Below, in pieces: positions 1,419-11,464 of a DNA stretch of 15,937 nucleotides (the stretch's first letter is position 1; each line of letters begins with the position of its first letter). The position numbers and the translations under genes are program-made. The stretch is from a virus (taxonomy: Duplodnaviria; Heunggongvirae; Uroviricota; Caudoviricetes). The stretch lies in the IMG/VR virus record IMGVR_UViG_2529292909_000010; one strand, written 5' to 3'. The notes under the pieces are model-generated. The model searched no databases, was not told the origin of the DNA, and worked only from the letters and a program-made list of their open reading frames with translations.

Positions 1419-3338
1419 TTAAAAATCAGCCTGACTCGGGATCAGTTTTTGCCAGATAACTGAAACGTATTTTGCCTGGTAACGGGCGTCATCAAGTGCA
1501 TTATGGCGCTCACCTTCGAATGGAATAGCCGTTCTGGCATCGAAGTCTATGGCTTTCCCCAGCTCAACGATTGTGCGTACATCGCGATCGTTGTAGTAAC
1601 GCCACGGGCAGGGGATCCCCTGCCGTTCGTATGAACGGCGCAAAATCGTGTTGTCGAAGTTGGCTCCATTTCCCCAGACCTGAACAAAAAATTCACCGGA
1701 GTTTTCGTCGATAAATTCCCGCAATTGTAACAGTGCATCATCTAACGGGATTTCATCGGTCATAATGGCAGATTGCGCTTCGCGTGATTGCTTAAGCCAC
1801 CATTTAATGGTGTCCCGATCAATGACTCCGCCAGCAGTTTCCAGATCGATAGTCTTACTAAATTCCGGTCCCATATCTCCGGTTTGCGGATCGAAAAATA
1901 TTGCACCTATTGAGATGATCGGGGCATCAGGATTTTTTCCCATGGTTTCAAGGTCGATCATTAGATGGTCACACGTCCTGCTGGTGGATGTGATTTCTTG
2001 ATGACCGTTCACCTTAATTGAGTGATCTGCCGTCTCGCCAGTTTCATTATCGCTATCGTGATGCTGATTGCCGCCAGTGTTCTCTTTGTGTGGATGTTCA
2101 GCGCCTTCCATTTCCTCCGGATCATCTTCCTGAACTTCAACCTGATACTCTTCATCGAATGTTTCCTGGTATGTTGCGTCGCCCATCACCGCGCCACAAT
2201 CAGGGCAGTTGCCGCCGCCGGTCTGACCGCAGGCGGTGCAGATCTTTTCCGGTTCCTGTTGCACTACTGGTTCAGGTTGTTTCGTTTCTGGCTCGTTTTG
2301 TTGCGTACTTGGGCTGTTTTGTTCCGCTTTCTGGTCGTTCTGTTCCGTTTCTTGCTGGTTCTGGTTCACAGAATCGCGGGTCTGGATCCCATTAACCCAT
2401 TTCGGATCATTCGGGTCGCTAATCCCTTCAACAAATTCACCACGTGATACTGCAAGCAGTTCATCGGCGTCAGGCTGGCTGATATTGGCTGCCTGCATAA
2501 TTTTGTTTACTTCGTCAGCGGTAACTTTTACTGACCCTGGTTGTGCGGTCGTGTCAGATGCACCAGTATTTTGTTGTGAACCTGAGTATGTACCGTTTTT
2601 GCGGGCGAAATATTCTTCTTTCGTGATTTCAGTAGCCCCAGCAGACAGCGCCTTATCCAGACCAGAAAGTTTGTTTGCGCGACCGTATTTTTCGCCATCC
2701 TTGTCGGTGAAGAGGAAGTAGAACGGCCCCTCACGTTCTACAGATGGTTCGACTTCCACTTTGCATTCGGTTTTTTCGTTGTCTGGAATTGCCGTTTCCA
2801 CTGCATCAGTTTCTGGTACTGGCGACGAGAGAGTATCAGTTGCGCTCTGATTTGTTCCTTCATCTTCAAACACGCCCTTTGTAGTCAGGTATTCAGTAAT
2901 GTATTTGTTCAGTGCCACAGGGTCTTTGTGAATGTCGATCGGACGTTCACGGACAAGGCCAAAAATAGTCTGGCGGTCGTAGCGAAGGGCATCAGGCTGT
3001 TTGCGCATTGATGCCGAGATACGCTTCCAGTCTTCGCGGTCGTTGTCGATAACTTCATTTTTTGCCCAGCGATGGATGCTGCCGTCAATGTTTCCGGCAT
3101 CCACATCACCAGGCCAGAGAGCGTAGGCCAGTTCGTCATCTAGTGTTTTCCATGTCTGCTTGTATTCGCGATGAATGGCAGCAATGACCGGGTTGATTTT
3201 TCCTGTTGAATTTTCAGTGTGCTGTTGATTGGCTCTGGCGCGGGCGAGATCAACAACAGACGTGTATTTTCCGGCTTCCTTGCGTTCACCTTCGCGACGT
3301 TTTTCCAGATGCGCATCTCTGCCTGAATTTCGGGCCAT
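1419..3338 (-). CDS. Phage exonuclease with C-terminal DEDDh 3'-5' exonuclease domain (639-aa ORF; true N-terminus uncertain)
   Basis: C-terminal about 180 aa carry DEDDh-like motifs (MIDLETMG; WGNGANFD; HNALDDARYQAKY). The centre is an acidic/Gln-rich low-complexity linker containing a CxxC...CxxC zinc-ribbon-like element (CTACGQTGGGNCPDCG). No clear Shine-Dalgarno before the ATG at 3338, and the first about 200 bp overlap the upstream ORF out of frame. Confidence 0.7.
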   Translation of the reverse strand: MARNSGRDAHLEKRREGERKEAGKYTSVVDLARARANQQHTENSTGKINPVIAAIHREYKQTWKTLDDELAYALWPGDVDAGNIDGSIHRWAKNEVIDNDREDWKRISASMRKQPDALRYDRQTIFGLVRERPIDIHKDPVALNKYITEYLTTKGVFEDEGTNQSATDTLSSPVPETDAVETAIPDNEKTECKVEVEPSVEREGPFYFLFTDKDGEKYGRANKLSGLDKALSAGATEITKEEYFARKNGTYSGSQQNTGASDTTAQPGSVKVTADEVNKIMQAANISQPDADELLAVSRGEFVEGISDPNDPKWVNGIQTRDSVNQNQQETEQNDQKAEQNSPSTQQNEPETKQPEPVVQQEPEKICTACGQTGGGNCPDCGAVMGDATYQETFDEEYQVEVQEDDPEEMEGAEHPHKENTGGNQHHDSDNETGETADHSIKVNGHQEITSTSRTCDHLMIDLETMGKNPDAPIISIGAIFFDPQTGDMGPEFSKTIDLETAGGVIDRDTIKWWLKQSREAQSAIMTDEIPLDDALLQLREFIDENSGEFFVQVWGNGANFDNTILRRSYERQGIPCPWRYYNDRDVRTIVELGKAIDFDARTAIPFEGERHNALDDARYQAKYVSVIWQKLIPSQADF

Positions 3339-3889
3339 TTGGCACCAGGCTTACATTTATGCTTAACCCACCCGATGGCATGCAGCTTAAGCTCCGGATA
3401 CATAGCGTTAACTTCTGGCATTTTCATCAACGCTTCAACGATATGGCCGTCGAATGTTGCCATGTCTTCCTGCAACAATTCCTGTGCGCTAATCACCATA
3501 TCAACAGTGATGTTTTCACATGTGTCGAACTTAACCATGAGAGCGTTCTGTACTTCAGGGGCCAGCTTGTCAAAAGTGACGTTCATCAGATCGGATTCAG
3601 TCTCAACCGGGACAAAAGAAGCAGAATCCTCATCCCAGCGGTTTTCCTGCATATATTCAGCATCCCATGAATCGAGGGCAGGGCGGGGTATGCCAGGTTT
3701 ATCCTCGCAGATAATAAATTTATAAGCGCAGTCCTGAGCAGCCGGATAATGTTCCAGGAACTGCCAGTGAAATTTTGCTCGAGCACGGCGTTCGTCGCCA
3801 GCTTCAATGGCTGTGGCTACAGCCACAGCGCCTTCTTCCCTTGTTGCCAGTTCGTCAGGAATGGCGGCGCAAATAAAGACTTTACTCAT
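3140..3889 (-). CDS. Hypothetical early-left operon protein (249-aa ORF; C-terminal about 50 aa doubtful, possibly the N-terminal part of a frameshifted fusion with the exonuclease)
   Basis: Long ORF with a GAGG Shine-Dalgarno before the ATG at 3889; protein-like composition for roughly the first 195 residues; the 3' end overlaps the 639-aa ORF by 199 bp in another frame, with an A5/T5 homopolymer at 3300-3304 in the overlap. Confidence 0.55.
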   Translation of the reverse strand: MSKVFICAAIPDELATREEGAVAVATAIEAGDERRARAKFHWQFLEHYPAAQDCAYKFIICEDKPGIPRPALDSWDAEYMQENRWDEDSASFVPVETESDLMNVTFDKLAPEVQNALMVKFDTCENITVDMVISAQELLQEDMATFDGHIVEALMKMPEVNAMYPELKLHAIGWVKHKCKPGAKWPEIQAEMRIWKNVAKVNARKPENTRLLLISPAPEPINSTLKIQQEKSTRSLLPFIANTSRHGKH

Positions 3890-3982
3890 TTTGTTTTAAC
3901 CTCATGACAGATTTAAGGATGAACAAATCCCTGCCATTGCTGGCATATAAGAATGAAACCGGATATTTATTACGGAACTGTT

Positions 3983-4174
3983 TTAAAGACCTGCCGGGAT
4001 TTCGATATTATCCTGGTGAATAACTTTATCGACCGGGTAACAGTTACCGGGAATTTTCTGTTCGGTTGCTGCAGTCATACACTCCTGCATTGTCCTGTGA
4101 ACACTGACTGCAATATCAACTGGCTCTCCGGAAACAAGAAAAACTGTCAGAACAAGTGCAAATGCTGTATTCAT
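3983..4174 (-). CDS. Small hypothetical protein with N-terminal signal-peptide-like segment (about 63 aa from the internal Met)
   Basis: From MNTAFALVLTVFLVSGEPVD: hydrophobic N-terminal stretch followed by a polar region; its ATG (4174-4172) overlaps the stop of the upstream ORF in an ATGA arrangement, suggesting translational coupling. Confidence 0.35.
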   Translation of the reverse strand: MNTAFALVLTVFLVSGEPVDIAVSVHRTMQECMTAATEQKIPGNCYPVDKVIHQDNIEIPAGL

Positions 4175-4359
4175 TGCCAGCATCCTTTTTGTATCGGACG
4201 TAAACGGGCCAACATTGAAAGAATGCATATTTTATTTAATAGCTCCCGTTCGTGTTTTCTCTTGTTAATGGCATCTTCAGTAAATACAGGGTTACTGATA
4301 GTGACACCAATTTCAAAACAACCTTCAGACGTATTAACGTTTGGTAATAACGTTTTCAT
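4171..4359 (-). CDS. Small hypothetical early protein (about 62 aa from the internal Met)
   Basis: ORF in the leftward early operon; TGAGGG Shine-Dalgarno about 9 nt upstream of the ATG at 4359; stop overlaps the start of the next small ORF. Confidence 0.35.
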   Translation of the reverse strand: MKTLLPNVNTSEGCFEIGVTISNPVFTEDAINKRKHERELLNKICILSMLARLRPIQKGCWQ

Positions 4360-4848
4360 TATCGCGCCCTCAACAATGAGTTTTGTGATGCGGTGCCTGG
4401 TGCCTCCAGGTGACGTTAACCAGTTAACAATTAACGCCGGATACAGAGAATCCAACCATAACACTGTTTTTGGTTTTAACTGTTCCGCGTGCGCTTAGCC
4501 GCATTCACCGCATCACAAAATTCACTTTAAAAAGGGCGGCAGAGCAGTCACGGAGTAAAACTGATACCGCCAAACGTCACCAGAAAATTGATAACAGAGG
4601 GCGTTGCAGCGGGGTTGTCACTTAAGCGTATGGTCAACCTGACAACCCGGTGTCCTCAACGGGGGAAGGAATAACCCCGCCATACTTACCGCCGCGCCAT
4701 TTCGCGGATTGCCACAACCAGAAGCGCACGGTCGAAGAAATTTAACGACAAGACTTATATGCAAAGGGATCTCGCCGTGCGCTTTCGTGTTATGCCCTGA
4801 CTTTTCAGGGTAAATTAACCTGTGGAAACCTGTTTTTACTGGCGCTAA

Positions 4849-5088
4849 TCAGTTAGCGTTTCTGGCTAACCAGCGATGCGCGGCAGCTTCGGTTTTAAAC
4901 GTTTTACTTTTGGTATACGTCATCGCGGTAAACGTGCCGTCCTGATTGGGAAACACGCCACATACCAGAGATTCGTTGTTGCCAAGCTCGATAGTATCCA
5001 TGCTGACCTCATTTCCCCTTAACGCTGGGGTAGCGGAACTAAAAACCTGCTGCGCTGTTATACAAAGTGTTCCCGCCGTCATGTTCAT
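4849..5088 (-). CDS. Small hypothetical protein, first gene of the leftward early transcript (possibly YdaF-like; start may be the internal ATG at 5001, giving about 50 aa)
   Basis: ORF directly downstream of the PL-like promoter; GAGG Shine-Dalgarno before the internal ATG at 5001; the YdaF resemblance is an unverified recollection. Confidence 0.45.
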   Translation of the reverse strand: MNMTAGTLCITAQQVFSSATPALRGNEVSMDTIELGNNESLVCGVFPNQDGTFTAMTYTKSKTFKTEAAAHRWLARNAN

Positions 5089-5182
5089 ACGCCTCGGGCT
5101 GGCTACTTAATCCCTGACCACTGCCGGGTAACTCTAGGTATTGCCCTGTATTGTGTGGGACGGGATGGGTTGGTATGGGAAA

Positions 5183-5250
5183 ACTATAGGAAATGCCTAA
5201 TTGCTTGTCAATAGGCTATGCCTAATGATTTGGGTGCGACCTAATAGGTG
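5183..5250 (-). promoter_or_regulatory. Leftward early promoter (PL-like) with OL-like operator repeats
   Basis: Minus strand reads TTGACA (5211-5206), 17-nt spacer, TATAGT (5188-5183). Overlapping near-palindromes carry the TAGGC/GCCTAA half-site (aTAGGCtatGCCTAA 5211-5225; GCCTAA 5195-5200; aCCTAAtAGGt 5239-5249). Confidence 0.6.
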
Positions 5251-5319
5251 ATGGTTTGTGGGAGAGGTAGTAGGAGTTAACTAACGGGAACTAGGAATTT
5301 CCCGTCGGACCATATAAGT

Positions 5320-5796
5320 TTAAGTTCCTGTCTTGGTGATGTTCTGGCTTTTCCGTTTTGATTCTTGATTTTTCAGATAGTTAGCTACCTTCATTTCCAT
5401 TGCGGCAATGTAGGCGCGAACGTCATGATCAACCCAACTAGGCTCCGTAGCATTTCCAGATAAGAGGAAAGCCACAATTGCTCTTTTTTCATCAGAGGCG
5501 GCTTGATAAAGGCTGTTTATGTCTAAAAGTTCACTTTTTGTATCTGAAGTGGATGGGGTTGGTATGGGGTATTCGTTAAGCCCCCAATGCTCTGGACCAA
5601 CCACATCAGAAAAGAAACGCCATAGTTCTGGAAGTTTGTCTTTACTTATCGAACCTTTCTTAATCCAGTCATGGATTGATGGTGGTTGGACTTTGAAATG
5701 ACGTGCGATTTCCGCCTTTGATTTGACGGCTCCTGATGCAATTTTTTTGTTGATGGCCTGCTCTATCGCTCGGCCTAAGTCTTTACCACTAAGCAT
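5320..5796 (-). CDS. Prophage repressor, RacR/CI-like HTH protein (158 aa)
   Basis: Divergent from the cro-like gene and sited between two operator clusters; HTH-like segment (AEIARHFKVQPPSIHDWIKKG); AGGAGA Shine-Dalgarno 8 nt upstream; same length and position as RacR in Rac-type immunity regions (recollection). Confidence 0.75.
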   Translation of the reverse strand: MLSGKDLGRAIEQAINKKIASGAVKSKAEIARHFKVQPPSIHDWIKKGSISKDKLPELWRFFSDVVGPEHWGLNEYPIPTPSTSDTKSELLDINSLYQAASDEKRAIVAFLLSGNATEPSWVDHDVRAYIAAMEMKVANYLKNQESKRKSQNITKTGT

Positions 5797-5824
5797 TGCT
5801 TAATAGTCTCCTATGCGCATCGCG

Positions 5825-5893
5825 TTAGGCAATCCCTACTCTCGAAGCGTTAGGCATAGCCTATTGACAATCGCATTAGGCTAAGCCTAATAT
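5825..5893 (+). promoter_or_regulatory. Rightward early promoter (PR-like) with three OR-like operators
   Basis: TTGACA (5864-5869), 18-nt spacer, TAATAT (5888-5893). Operators at about 25-bp spacing: TTAGGCaatcCCTAc (5825-5839), TTAGGCataGCCTAt (5850-5864, touching the -35) and the near-perfect palindrome TTAGGCtaaGCCTAA (5876-5890, overlapping the -10). Confidence 0.6.
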
Positions 5894-5920
5894 TATTGTG
5901 TGTTTTTTGGAGTTCATTCG

Positions 5921-6244
5921 ATGAAAAAAGATAACTATTCATTCAAACGAGCTTGTGCTGTTGTCGGTGGGCAATCAGCAATGGCTAGGCTTTTAGGTGT
6001 ATCTCCTCCAAGCGTAAATCAATGGATCAAAGGTGTACGTCAGTTGCCTGCTGAGAGATGTCCTGCGATTGAACGAGCAACAAAAGGTGGTGTCCTGTGT
6101 GAAGAACTTCGTCCTGATGTTGATTGGACATACTTACGACGCTCGTCATGTTATTCGCAGAATATGTCGATGAAGCAACCAAATGACGAAAACGATCATA
6201 CCCGAAGCATCAAGAGGCAAATGATTCATGAAAATCAAACATGA
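5921..6244 (+). CDS. Cro-like HTH regulator (YdaS-like, about 107 aa)
   Basis: First gene after the PR-like promoter; GGAG Shine-Dalgarno before the ATG at 5921; HTH-like segment (QSAMARLLGVSPPSVNQWIKG) resembling Rac YdaS (recollection). Confidence 0.7.
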   Translation: MKKDNYSFKRACAVVGGQSAMARLLGVSPPSVNQWIKGVRQLPAERCPAIERATKGGVLCEELRPDVDWTYLRRSSCYSQNMSMKQPNDENDHTRSIKRQMIHENQT

Positions 6245-6653
6245 GCACATCCGCATGGCGATGAATGCCTGGGCATATCCTGATGGTGAGAAAGTTCCAG
6301 CAGCTGGAATAACCCAGGCTTATTTTGAGTTGGGTATGACGTTCCCAGAACTGTATGACGACAGCCATCCGGAAGCCCTGGCTCGCAATACCCAGAAAAT
6401 TTTCCGCTGGGTAGAGAAAGACACCCCTGATGCAGTTGAAAAAATTCAGGCGTTGTTACCAGCGATCGAAAAGGCAATGCCACCTTTGCTGGTGGCCAGA
6501 ATGCGCAGCCACAGTTCAGCTTATTTTCGGGAGCTGGTGGAGACGCGGGAACGACTGGTGAGAGACGCTGATGATTTTGTCGCAGTGGCGATCGCTGGTT
6601 TCAACCAGATGAATCGTGGTGGCCCTGCAGGAAATATTGTGGCTGTGCATTGA
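6228..6653 (+). CDS. YdaT-like protein (141 aa), second gene of the rightward early operon
   Basis: Start overlaps the cro-like stop by 17 nt with an AAGAGG Shine-Dalgarno; size and position match YdaT of Rac-type prophages (recollection). Confidence 0.6.
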   Translation: MKIKHEHIRMAMNAWAYPDGEKVPAAGITQAYFELGMTFPELYDDSHPEALARNTQKIFRWVEKDTPDAVEKIQALLPAIEKAMPPLLVARMRSHSSAYFRELVETRERLVRDADDFVAVAIAGFNQMNRGGPAGNIVAVH

Positions 6654-11132: not shown

Positions 11133-11308
11133 TGCTGCGGGTGCTTGAGGCTATCTGCCTCAGGCATGAACACCAAAAGGCAGATAGAGAAAAGCCCCAG
11201 TTAACATTACGCGTCCGGCAAGACGCTTAACATTAATCTGAGGCCAATTTCATGCTTTGCACATGTAGGTTAGCCTCTTACGTGCCGAAAGGCAAGGAGA
11301 AGCAGGCT

Positions 11309-11464
11309 ATGAAGCAGCAAAAGGCGATGTTAATCGCCCTGATCGTCATCTGTTTAACCGTCATAGTGACGGCACTGGTAACGAGGAAAGACCTCTGCGA
11401 GGTACGAATCCGAACCGGCCAGACGGAGGTCGCTGTCTTCACAGCTTACGAACCTGAGGAGTAA
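11309..11464 (+). CDS. hokD: Hok/Gef-family type I toxin (51 aa)
   Basis: MKQQKAMLIALIVICLTVIVTALVTRKDLCEVRIRTGQTEVAVFTAYEPEE: single transmembrane helix plus conserved C-terminal region typical of Hok/Gef; AGGAG Shine-Dalgarno before the ATG at 11309; the upstream leader resembles the R1 hok leader. The hokD symbol is from memory of the K-12 sequence and could be another hok paralogue. Confidence 0.85.
   Translation: MKQQKAMLIALIVICLTVIVTALVTRKDLCEVRIRTGQTEVAVFTAYEPEE

Follow-up and report, generated by a model that had tools for sequence, protein, structure and literature searches.

The 15,937-nucleotide stretch of DNA analysed here (the window) belongs to a Rac-like lambdoid prophage of Escherichia coli and contains its immunity (on/off control) region, in which the repressor RacR very probably silences two outward promoters, PR and PL, by occupying related dyads on either side of its own gene. 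The initial annotation had read positions 5183-5893 as such a switch, with OL/PL and OR/PR around the repressor, and had suggested a comparison with the racR-ydaS region of the Rac prophage. The reading is supported by a family-level match of the repressor to RacR and by orthology with Rac of E. coli K-12, and the comparison is borne out by 86.6% identity over window positions 5014-6251, with dyads and promoter in corresponding places. BLAST aligns this interval with K-12 Rac as one shared module, which identifies the immunity module as Rac-type within a mosaic prophage. The architecture is lambdoid: the repressor gene diverges from cro-like and cII-like genes, and the predicted OL/PL lies on its far side.

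Over the 1.2 kb around the switch, identity is 99.9% to prophages of E. coli O103 and further complete genomes, where the genes are annotated as racR, a helix-turn-helix (HTH) protein and a YdaT-family protein. The prophage adjoins potC/potD and is not at the K-12 Rac site; an O157:H7 genome has a matching arrangement at potC/potD, with a left cassette 99.0% identical to that of the window, and an O157:H7 allele leaves all five dyads of at most 2 mismatches, and the two promoter matches, unchanged. About 20% of complete E. coli genomes (1086 of 5426) carry the module, Shiga toxin-producing O157:H7 and O103 strains among them; in all 1086 the left operator and promoter are unannotated in RefSeq. 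The features of the region are as follows.

4849..5001, minus strand: first gene of the leftward operon, encoding a DUF1391 protein (YdaF/YdfA-like)
5002..5176, minus strand: predicted PL leader, C-rich, conserved with K-12 Rac down to 5014
5183..5188, minus strand: predicted PL -10, TATAGT, 17-bp spacer; 11 of 12 consensus matches for PL
5186..5200: OL1, dyad ATAGGAAATGCCTAA, 2 mismatches; covers PL spacer and 3 bp of the -10
5206..5211, minus strand: predicted PL -35, TTGACA; TTGAC invariant in 7 loci
5211..5225: OL2, dyad ATAGGCTATGCCTAA (TTAGGCATAGCCTAT in the PL sense), fused to the predicted PL -35
5230..5244: possible OL3, TTGGGTGCGACCTAA, 3 mismatches; 19 bp from OL2
5283..5306, minus strand: hairpin just past the racR stop, 8-bp stem
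5320..5796, minus strand: racR, 158-aa prophage repressor, functional analogue of CI
5789..5803: weak dyad over the racR start codon, CTAAGCATTGCTTAA, 3 mismatches; "O3" of PMC9638921
5825..5839: OR3, dyad TTAGGCAATCCCTAC, 2 mismatches; region of the K-12 racR promoters
5850..5864: OR2, dyad TTAGGCATAGCCTAT, its last T being the first T of the PR -35; identical to OL2 here
5864..5869, plus strand: PR (PydaST) -35, TTGACA, 18-bp spacer
5876..5890: OR1, perfect dyad TTAGGCTAAGCCTAA; covers PR spacer and first 3 bp of the -10
5888..5893, plus strand: PR (PydaST) -10, TAATAT; 10 of 12 consensus matches for PR
5921..6244, plus strand: ydaS, Cro-like, first gene of the rightward operon
6228..6653, plus strand: ydaT, CII-like regulator

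Analysis of the repressor places it firmly in the RacR family: it matches the NCBIfam equivalog NF049929 with 246.8 bits (E = 8.8e-74; cutoff 200) and is 92% identical to K-12 RacR. Pfam recognizes no family in it, and in particular no Peptidase_S24 domain of the CI/LexA type, whereas homologues in Achromobacter and Aeromonas with a related N-terminal domain carry Peptidase_S24 (E = 6e-15 to 2e-14). RacR is thus a functional counterpart of CI outside the CI/LexA family, and its induction must take a route other than RecA-stimulated self-cleavage. The homologues from Mixta, Proteus, a Pseudomonadota metagenome-assembled genome (MAG) and Achromobacter are 58-64% identical to it overall and 77-78% identical over the first 77 residues; residues 1-77 show high conservation in nine relatives, and TTAGGC/GCCTAA dyads are retained in seven of the nine, whereas the Aeromonas relative (L014) has none and a different operator sequence. 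The Achromobacter relatives have these operators on either side of the repressor gene, and the occurrence of such operators beside S24-type relatives indicates that RacR is a DNA-binding module of the CI type in which an SOS-cleavable domain was lost or never existed. Its HTH fold is asserted in PMC5700373 and PMC9638921; Pfam matches of RacR homologues to YdaS_toxin or HTH_17 are all below threshold, a sequence search of the PDB with RacR returned only a chance match, and a single-sequence AlphaFold2 model of low confidence (mean pLDDT 49.9) contains helices at residues 27-33 and 40-46.

The block TTAGGCATAGCCTATTGACAA occurs exactly twice in the window, at 5205-5225 on the minus strand and at 5850-5870 on the plus strand, flanking the repressor gene; chance would give no copy, not even at a tolerance of 3 mismatches. 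The inverted placement described in the initial annotation therefore stands, but the exact identity extends over 21 bp rather than the approximately 22 bp given there; at 92% identity the inverted repeat reaches 26 nt. Every one of the seven exact TTAGGC hexamers of the 15.9-kb window falls inside 5195-5890, a clustering whose probability is about 5e-8 when n·f^(n-1) is used as an approximation, with n = 7 and f = 4.4% of the window. The dyad TTAGGCNNNGCCTAA (TTAGGC-N3-GCCTAA) is found with at most 2 mismatches at five sites, starting at 5186, 5211, 5825, 5850 and 5876, against an expectation of 0.41 (none of 200 shuffled sequences reaches five), and weaker dyads with 3 mismatches start at 5230, 5764 and 5789. 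All five good dyads lie in the two flanks of the gene, as expected from the earlier proposal that left and right operator sets share this half-site, and the proposal that the best palindrome overlaps the PR -10 was likewise accurate, in that the perfect dyad at 5876-5890 covers 3 bp of that hexamer. OR1 is conserved in all homologue loci compared, and its K-12 equivalent is protected at the lowest RacR concentration (PMC9638921). A terminator-like match at 5875-5891 was rejected as the OR1 palindrome followed by Ts.

The two flanks differ in their additional sites. Loci outside Escherichia carry, on the right, two dyads and the dyad at the racR ATG, the latter better conserved in other genera, as TTAGGCAATGCTTAG; Escherichia has one more 25-bp unit, with a dyad equal to OL2, and OR3 is the counterpart of the promoter-proximal dyad in the shorter loci. 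This extra unit may have arisen by duplication or by copying of OL. On the left, the OL1-OL2 distance is always 25 bp, and the candidate OL3 is doubtful as an operator: its distal half-site alone is conserved, within Escherichia only, and it is absent from distant loci.

A consensus scan of 4800-6300 finds exactly two sigma-70-like promoters, both outward, each with the TTGACA -35 that a copy of the block had been proposed to supply. The right one is predicted to be PydaST, given its TTGACA, 18-bp spacer, TAATAT and overlap with the best operator: the TAATAT hexamer of K-12 PydaST was mapped by primer extension and -10 mutagenesis (PMC9638921), and PMC9638921 and PMC11879457 agree with the window on TTGACA and the 18-bp spacing. 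Among the K-12 racR promoters, the -10 elements of PracR2 and PracR3 are changed here (GAGAAT to GAGACT; AGTAAG not conserved). The dyads of Rac-type operators, with their consensus, are found at 5876, 5850, 5825 and 5789, the last across the racR ATG.

K-12 likewise has the left cassette, and the alignment of left with right cassette extends over about 75 bp; the homology of the cassettes is indicated by a BLAST match of the window OR to the inverted K-12 OL, and an alignment of four cassettes agrees. We followed the left cassette through seven loci: the window, K-12, Mixta, Proteus, a Pseudomonadota MAG and two of Achromobacter. Downstream of the repressor gene these share the arrangement TTAGGCnnnGCCTAT-TGACA-(10 nt)-TTAGGCnnnnCCTAA/T-(rest of the TAnnAT hexamer), with a dyad spacing that is always 25 bp and a promoter spacer that is always 17 bp, the spacer and the TAnnAT hexamer being kept in all seven. 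Invariant columns make up 68% of the dyads and hexamers, versus 1% of 67 flanking columns. The mismatch in the distal dyad (GCCTAT, not GCCTAA) is conserved because its last base is the first T of the -35, and the end of the proximal dyad, TAA or TAT, is the start of the -10; as far as sequence can tell, the promoter is built into the operator pair. Transcription from PL would be expected to start near 5176, about 7 nt past TATAGT, and in K-12 near NC_000913.3 position 1,419,620 on the minus strand. The OL pair is absent within the 2.5-kb flank in Klebsiella (L010), a Nitrosomonas MAG (L012) and the Aeromonas relative (L014), which may be decayed remnants or may have OL farther away.

Published expression data from K-12 support a function for the left cassette. 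Lowering of racR expression by the C protein brings a rise of more than 70-fold in kilR, ydaC and ralA, a rise of about 40-fold in ydaF, ydaG, ydaE and racC, and a drop in the racR transcript itself (PMC6765115). These leftward genes are likewise induced by CRISPRi of racR, in which transcription across racR is blocked as well (bioRxiv 10.64898/2026.09.06.749655). Their rise as racR falls speaks for a RacR-repressed promoter of their own downstream of racR, and against read-through. Together, conservation and this derepression suggest that the left cassette is a RacR-repressed PL. No description of a Rac OL/PL, or of operators downstream of racR, was found in the searchable literature outside subscription-only papers; the RacR regulon is stated to be uncharacterized, with ydaFG listed as a racR-proximal operon of unknown function (PMC11014345), and knowledge of zygotic induction of the Rac recombination genes goes back to the 1970s (cited in PMC5917428).

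Several other explanations of the left cassette and the repeats were weighed. If leftward genes were expressed by read-through from racR, the left TTGACA/TATAGT would have no function, having been left behind when the right cassette was duplicated. The two units are codirectional, the hairpin past racR is weak, and read-through from racR to kil is under Rho control in K-12 (PMC4150792); however, contrary to the prediction of read-through, leftward genes rise 40-70-fold when the C protein lowers racR transcription or dCas9 blocks it (PMC6765115; bioRxiv 10.64898/2026.09.06.749655). The hexamers, which match the consensus at 11 of 12 positions, and their spacer are moreover conserved across bacterial classes amid flanks that are 1% invariant, and this explanation is very unlikely. 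Less credible still is that the 26-nt repeats, 92% identical around a single gene, are the terminal inverted repeats of a small mobile racR cassette. The arms consist of operator and promoter elements, and the arrangement also surrounds genes whose products share no more than 58-64% identity, as well as much longer forms fused to S24 and accompanied by up to 1.4 kb of additional genes; a mobile element with terminal inverted repeats was rejected, as there is no target-site duplication beside the arms and no transposase.

Somewhat unlikely, although far less so than these two, is that the left cassette serves chiefly as an accessory operator, rather than as a promoter, and pairs with OR across about 640-690 bp and loops out racR, with tighter repression of PR and autoregulation of PRM as with lambda CI octamers, and perhaps with a roadblock to read-through from racR. 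Dyad pairs with equal 25-bp geometry on both sides fit such a role, looping by the analogous repressors PaaR2 and CI has been discussed (PMC8630535), and a roadblock would suit codirectional units about 100 bp apart in a prophage type in which silencing of kil needs Rho (PMC4150792). An operator alone, however, needs no promoter, whereas a -35, a 17-bp spacer and a -10 are conserved with the dyads in every locus. The OL-OR distance is also not constant in phase over its range of 664-2627 bp (664-692 bp in the enterobacterial and Pseudomonadota-MAG loci; 1942 and 2627 bp in Achromobacter), but helical phasing of these distances says nothing for or against looping. Looping is compatible with a RacR-repressed PL and does not exclude it.

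The RacR-repressed PL and PR can be combined in a mechanism. RacR dimers would bind 15-17-bp dyads, (A/G)TTAGGC-N3-GCCTAA(T), spaced 25-26 bp apart; this spacing is near that of lambda, which makes cooperative binding of neighbours plausible. On each side of racR, two dyads would bracket a strong outward sigma-70 promoter, and since one dyad (O2) ends in the first T of the -35 and the other (O1) in the first three bases of the -10, their occupation would exclude RNA polymerase. On the right, silencing of PR (PydaST) would keep ydaS (cro-like), ydaT (cII-like) and the replication genes off; on the left, silencing of the predicted PL would keep off the operon of the DUF1391 gene, dicF, dicB, exonuclease, xis and int. 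OR3 and the dyad at the racR ATG lie over the stretch that holds the repressor's own promoters and would mediate autoregulation, which has been shown in K-12. Binding to the right dyads, mapping of the ydaST promoter, repression of ydaS and racR and derepression of leftward genes are findings made in the K-12 orthologue only; for the window, the identity of the left cassette as a RacR-repressed PL, the start of PL, the promoters of racR, any cooperativity and OL-OR looping are inferred. Because racR and the PL operon are codirectional, with only 75-94 nt between the racR stop and the dyads, read-through must be stopped, and in K-12 racR transcripts undergo Rho-dependent termination that is needed to keep kil silent (PMC4150792).

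Comparison of E. coli alleles supports contacts of the protein with the half-sites: the dyads vary freely in their central triplets (ATA, GTA, GCA, ACA, GAC) while the half-sites and the -35 do not vary, the pattern expected of such contacts. In an O157:H7 allele that encodes an identical RacR protein, the two copies of the block differ in the central triplet; the exact 21-bp identity is thus specific to the allele, and gene conversion does not maintain it. That OL2 and OR2 evolve in concert was rejected as a general rule, their triplets being different in K-12, an O157:H7 allele and strain HY220605.

The genes on either side fit a lambdoid prophage. From 5001 down to int, all genes are on the minus strand, and the leftward operon comprises DUF1391, the DicF RNA (Rfam, 76.7 bits), dicB, ydfD, a frameshifted exonuclease gene, xis and int; Rfam finds no RNA family at gathering thresholds inside 5183-5893. 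The PL leader is less structured than shuffled sequences (folding z = +1.66), and no put- or nut-like RNA structure is therefore claimed for it. To the right, YdaS matches Pfam YdaS_toxin (PF15943; 3.8e-30, 103.9 bits) and P22_Cro (1e-8, 35.3 bits), both above gathering thresholds, and is 85% identical to K-12 YdaS; YdaT matches YdaT_toxin (PF06254; 7.5e-10, 39.6 bits versus a cutoff of 21) and is only 33% identical to K-12 YdaT.

Between the racR stop (5320) and the left dyads there is no ORF of at least 40 aa; the stop is 75 nt from the weak site at 5230-5244 and 94 nt from the dyad at 5211-5225. The initial annotation was thus right that no rex-like genes separate the repressor from PL, yet this is unremarkable: Escherichia, Mixta and Proteus have nothing in this slot, Achromobacter has 0.76-1.4 kb of extra ORFs there, and in CP-933P it is occupied, which indicates a variable cargo slot rather than a distinctive trait. 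The hairpin past the racR stop, which has an equivalent in K-12, is a weak candidate for an insulator of PL genes from racR read-through; the folded 81-nt region is no better than shuffled sequence (z = -0.4).

The right half of the switch is established, not new, because the right cassette has been published for the K-12 orthologue, and the system as a whole is an allele of the RacR/YdaS switch already known, with its general lambdoid design. The sole increment is an explicit, conservation-backed definition of a Rac-type OL/PL, which was to be expected and whose relevance beyond annotation is small. The predicted OL/PL is the likely control point of toxic leftward genes (kilR in K-12, dicF/dicB in the window) and would also control recombination and excision genes; naming it would explain published transcriptomes in which these genes jump 40-70-fold when RacR falls. 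More tentatively, and with less than even confidence in the combination, the RacR domain and its hard-wired cassette could be an old portable module, with operators near unchanged from Enterobacterales to Burkholderiales and a C-terminus that is either short and non-peptidase (Escherichia, Mixta, Proteus) or S24 (Achromobacter). In Escherichia, OR would have gained a 25-bp unit resembling OL2, its dyad and -35 being copies of those of OL2, so that a two-dyad right operator became a three-dyad one; in addition, OL and OR might be paired by RacR, with the 0.65-kb racR as the loop.

The closest known system is K-12 Rac itself. Its 123-bp racR-ydaS intergenic region contains three variant GCCTAA/TTAGGC repeats, is bound by RacR in vitro (three complexes in EMSA) and in vivo (ChIP), and includes the ydaS promoter, which RacR represses (PMC5700373). 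DNase I footprints defined a monomer motif, ATTAGGC, and an operator consensus, (T/A)TAGGC-n3-GCCTA(T/A), with the site at the ydaST promoter occupied first and another operator spanning the racR ATG; PydaST and three racR promoters (PracR1-3) were mapped by primer extension and -10 mutants, and YdaS was reported not to repress racR (PMC9638921). A later paper describes four operators and an 18-bp spacer (PMC11879457). The window shares with K-12 Rac the orthologous module, the dyad consensus, the PydaST hexamers with their 18-bp spacing, the dyad at the racR ATG and the left cassette; it differs in the central triplets of the dyads, in the altered -10 elements of PracR2 and PracR3 and in its leftward genes, which are DUF1391, dicF, dicB and ydfD rather than ydaG, ydaF, sieB and kilR.

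Prophage CP-933P of E. coli O157:H7, with PaaR2, YdaS and YdaT, has a layout in common with the window, cro-like and cII-like genes diverging from the repressor and PL lying beyond the repressor operon (PMC8630535, PMC9986795), and in reporters this PL is repressed about 100-fold by the repressor and the Cro-like protein (PMC8630535, PMC9986795). The YdaT box at the ydaS/ydaT junction of CP-933P has its counterpart at 6221-6238 in the window. CP-933P differs in its repressor, PaaR2, in its 18-bp palindromic operators with the consensus GTTTAGTAA, and in having the toxin-antitoxin pair paaA2-parE2 in the slot between repressor and PL (PMC8630535), which is empty in the window.

Mirror-image cassettes are a known lambdoid design. 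As in lambda, the repressor gene of the window lies between outward early promoters, each overlapped by several related dyad operators, and extra operators over the repressor's own promoter provide for autoregulation. The centre-to-centre spacing of lambda operators is approximately 23-24 bp, compared to 25-26 bp in the window. Lambda differs in having rexAB between repressor and PL, where the window has no such genes, and in the autocleavage domain (S24) that RacR does not possess; and unlike those of lambda, the operators of the window consist of half-sites of 6-7 bp set 3 bp apart.

The right operator of the immunity switch is longer in Escherichia than elsewhere: comparison of window positions 5825-5870 with the upstream regions of six loci encoding RacR relatives (L011 and L013 from Achromobacter, L012 from a Nitrosomonas MAG, and L007, L008 and L009 from other genera) indicates that Escherichia right operators possess one additional 25-bp unit, comprising a dyad and a spacer, relative to all other genera compared. 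In both its dyad and its -35, the added unit is identical to OL2, the dyad fused to the -35 of the predicted leftward promoter PL. On this alignment, OR3 would be the former promoter-proximal dyad of an ancestral right operator. In three relatives the N-terminal domain is RacR-type and is followed by a C-terminal Peptidase_S24 domain (LexA/CI-like):

L011, 2501-3601: Achromobacter
L013, 2501-3589: Achromobacter
L014, 2501-3178: Aeromonas

Both Achromobacter loci retain TTAGGC-N3-GCCTAA dyads at OR and OL alike; the Aeromonas locus has a different operator sequence, with no such dyads at the locus.

Homology of the immunity module to the K-12 Rac prophage ends on the left at 5014, 13 nt upstream of the start codon of the first PL gene (5001), and on the right at 6251, shortly inside ydaT, mosaic edges that are consistent with cassette-wise swapping of the immunity region. 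The predicted PL leader (5002-5176, minus strand) matches K-12 Rac as far as 5014, despite a different first downstream gene. The leader is rich in C and has less structure than shuffles of its sequence (z = +1.66). It looks like a rut-type region, in agreement with the Rho silencing already known for Rac genes. A 13-nt sequence, GGGTTGGTATGGG, is repeated exactly and in direct orientation at 5167-5179, the very beginning of the predicted PL transcript, and at 5556-5568 within racR, where it encodes the PIPTP linker; with one indel allowed, the repeat grows to about 19 nt. On the transcribed strand both copies are rich in C, and K-12 retains a similar pair; the repeats may serve as a common Rho-loading element or be a relic of duplication.

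The leftward operon carries the following genes:

4534-4585, minus strand: DicF small RNA (Rfam RF00039, 76.7 bits)
about 4171-4359, minus strand: dicB, downstream of DicF
about 3983-4174, minus strand: ydfD, after dicB
1419-3889, minus strand: exonuclease gene, as two overlapping ORFs

The succession of DicF, dicB and ydfD places a Qin-type cell-division-inhibition module under a Rac-type immunity region, at the position held in K-12 Rac by sieB, kilR and kilS. A 181-aa plus-strand ORF (3953-4498) antisense to these genes is probably spurious. The split exonuclease gene carries a frameshift annotation in the 99.9%-identical genome, suggesting that the prophage is at least partly defective. 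In the late-early region, one further RNA was detected:

11139-11314, plus strand: sok antisense RNA (Rfam RF01794, 119.8 bits)

The sok RNA is accompanied by a Hok/Gef family gene, annotated in the near-identical genome, and the two constitute a type I toxin-antitoxin locus.

At the ydaS/ydaT junction, 6221-6238 (ATGATTCATGAAAATCAA) agrees with the YdaT box TTGATT-N6-AATCAA at all positions but one, a match that is statistically weak by itself (1.4 expected at <=2 mismatches). This candidate box covers the end of ydaS and the ydaT start codon, the same position as the primary YdaT site of the O157:H7 prophage CP-933P (PMC9986795), and it also corresponds to the K-12 reference repeat ATGATT-n6-AATCAA (PMC11879457).
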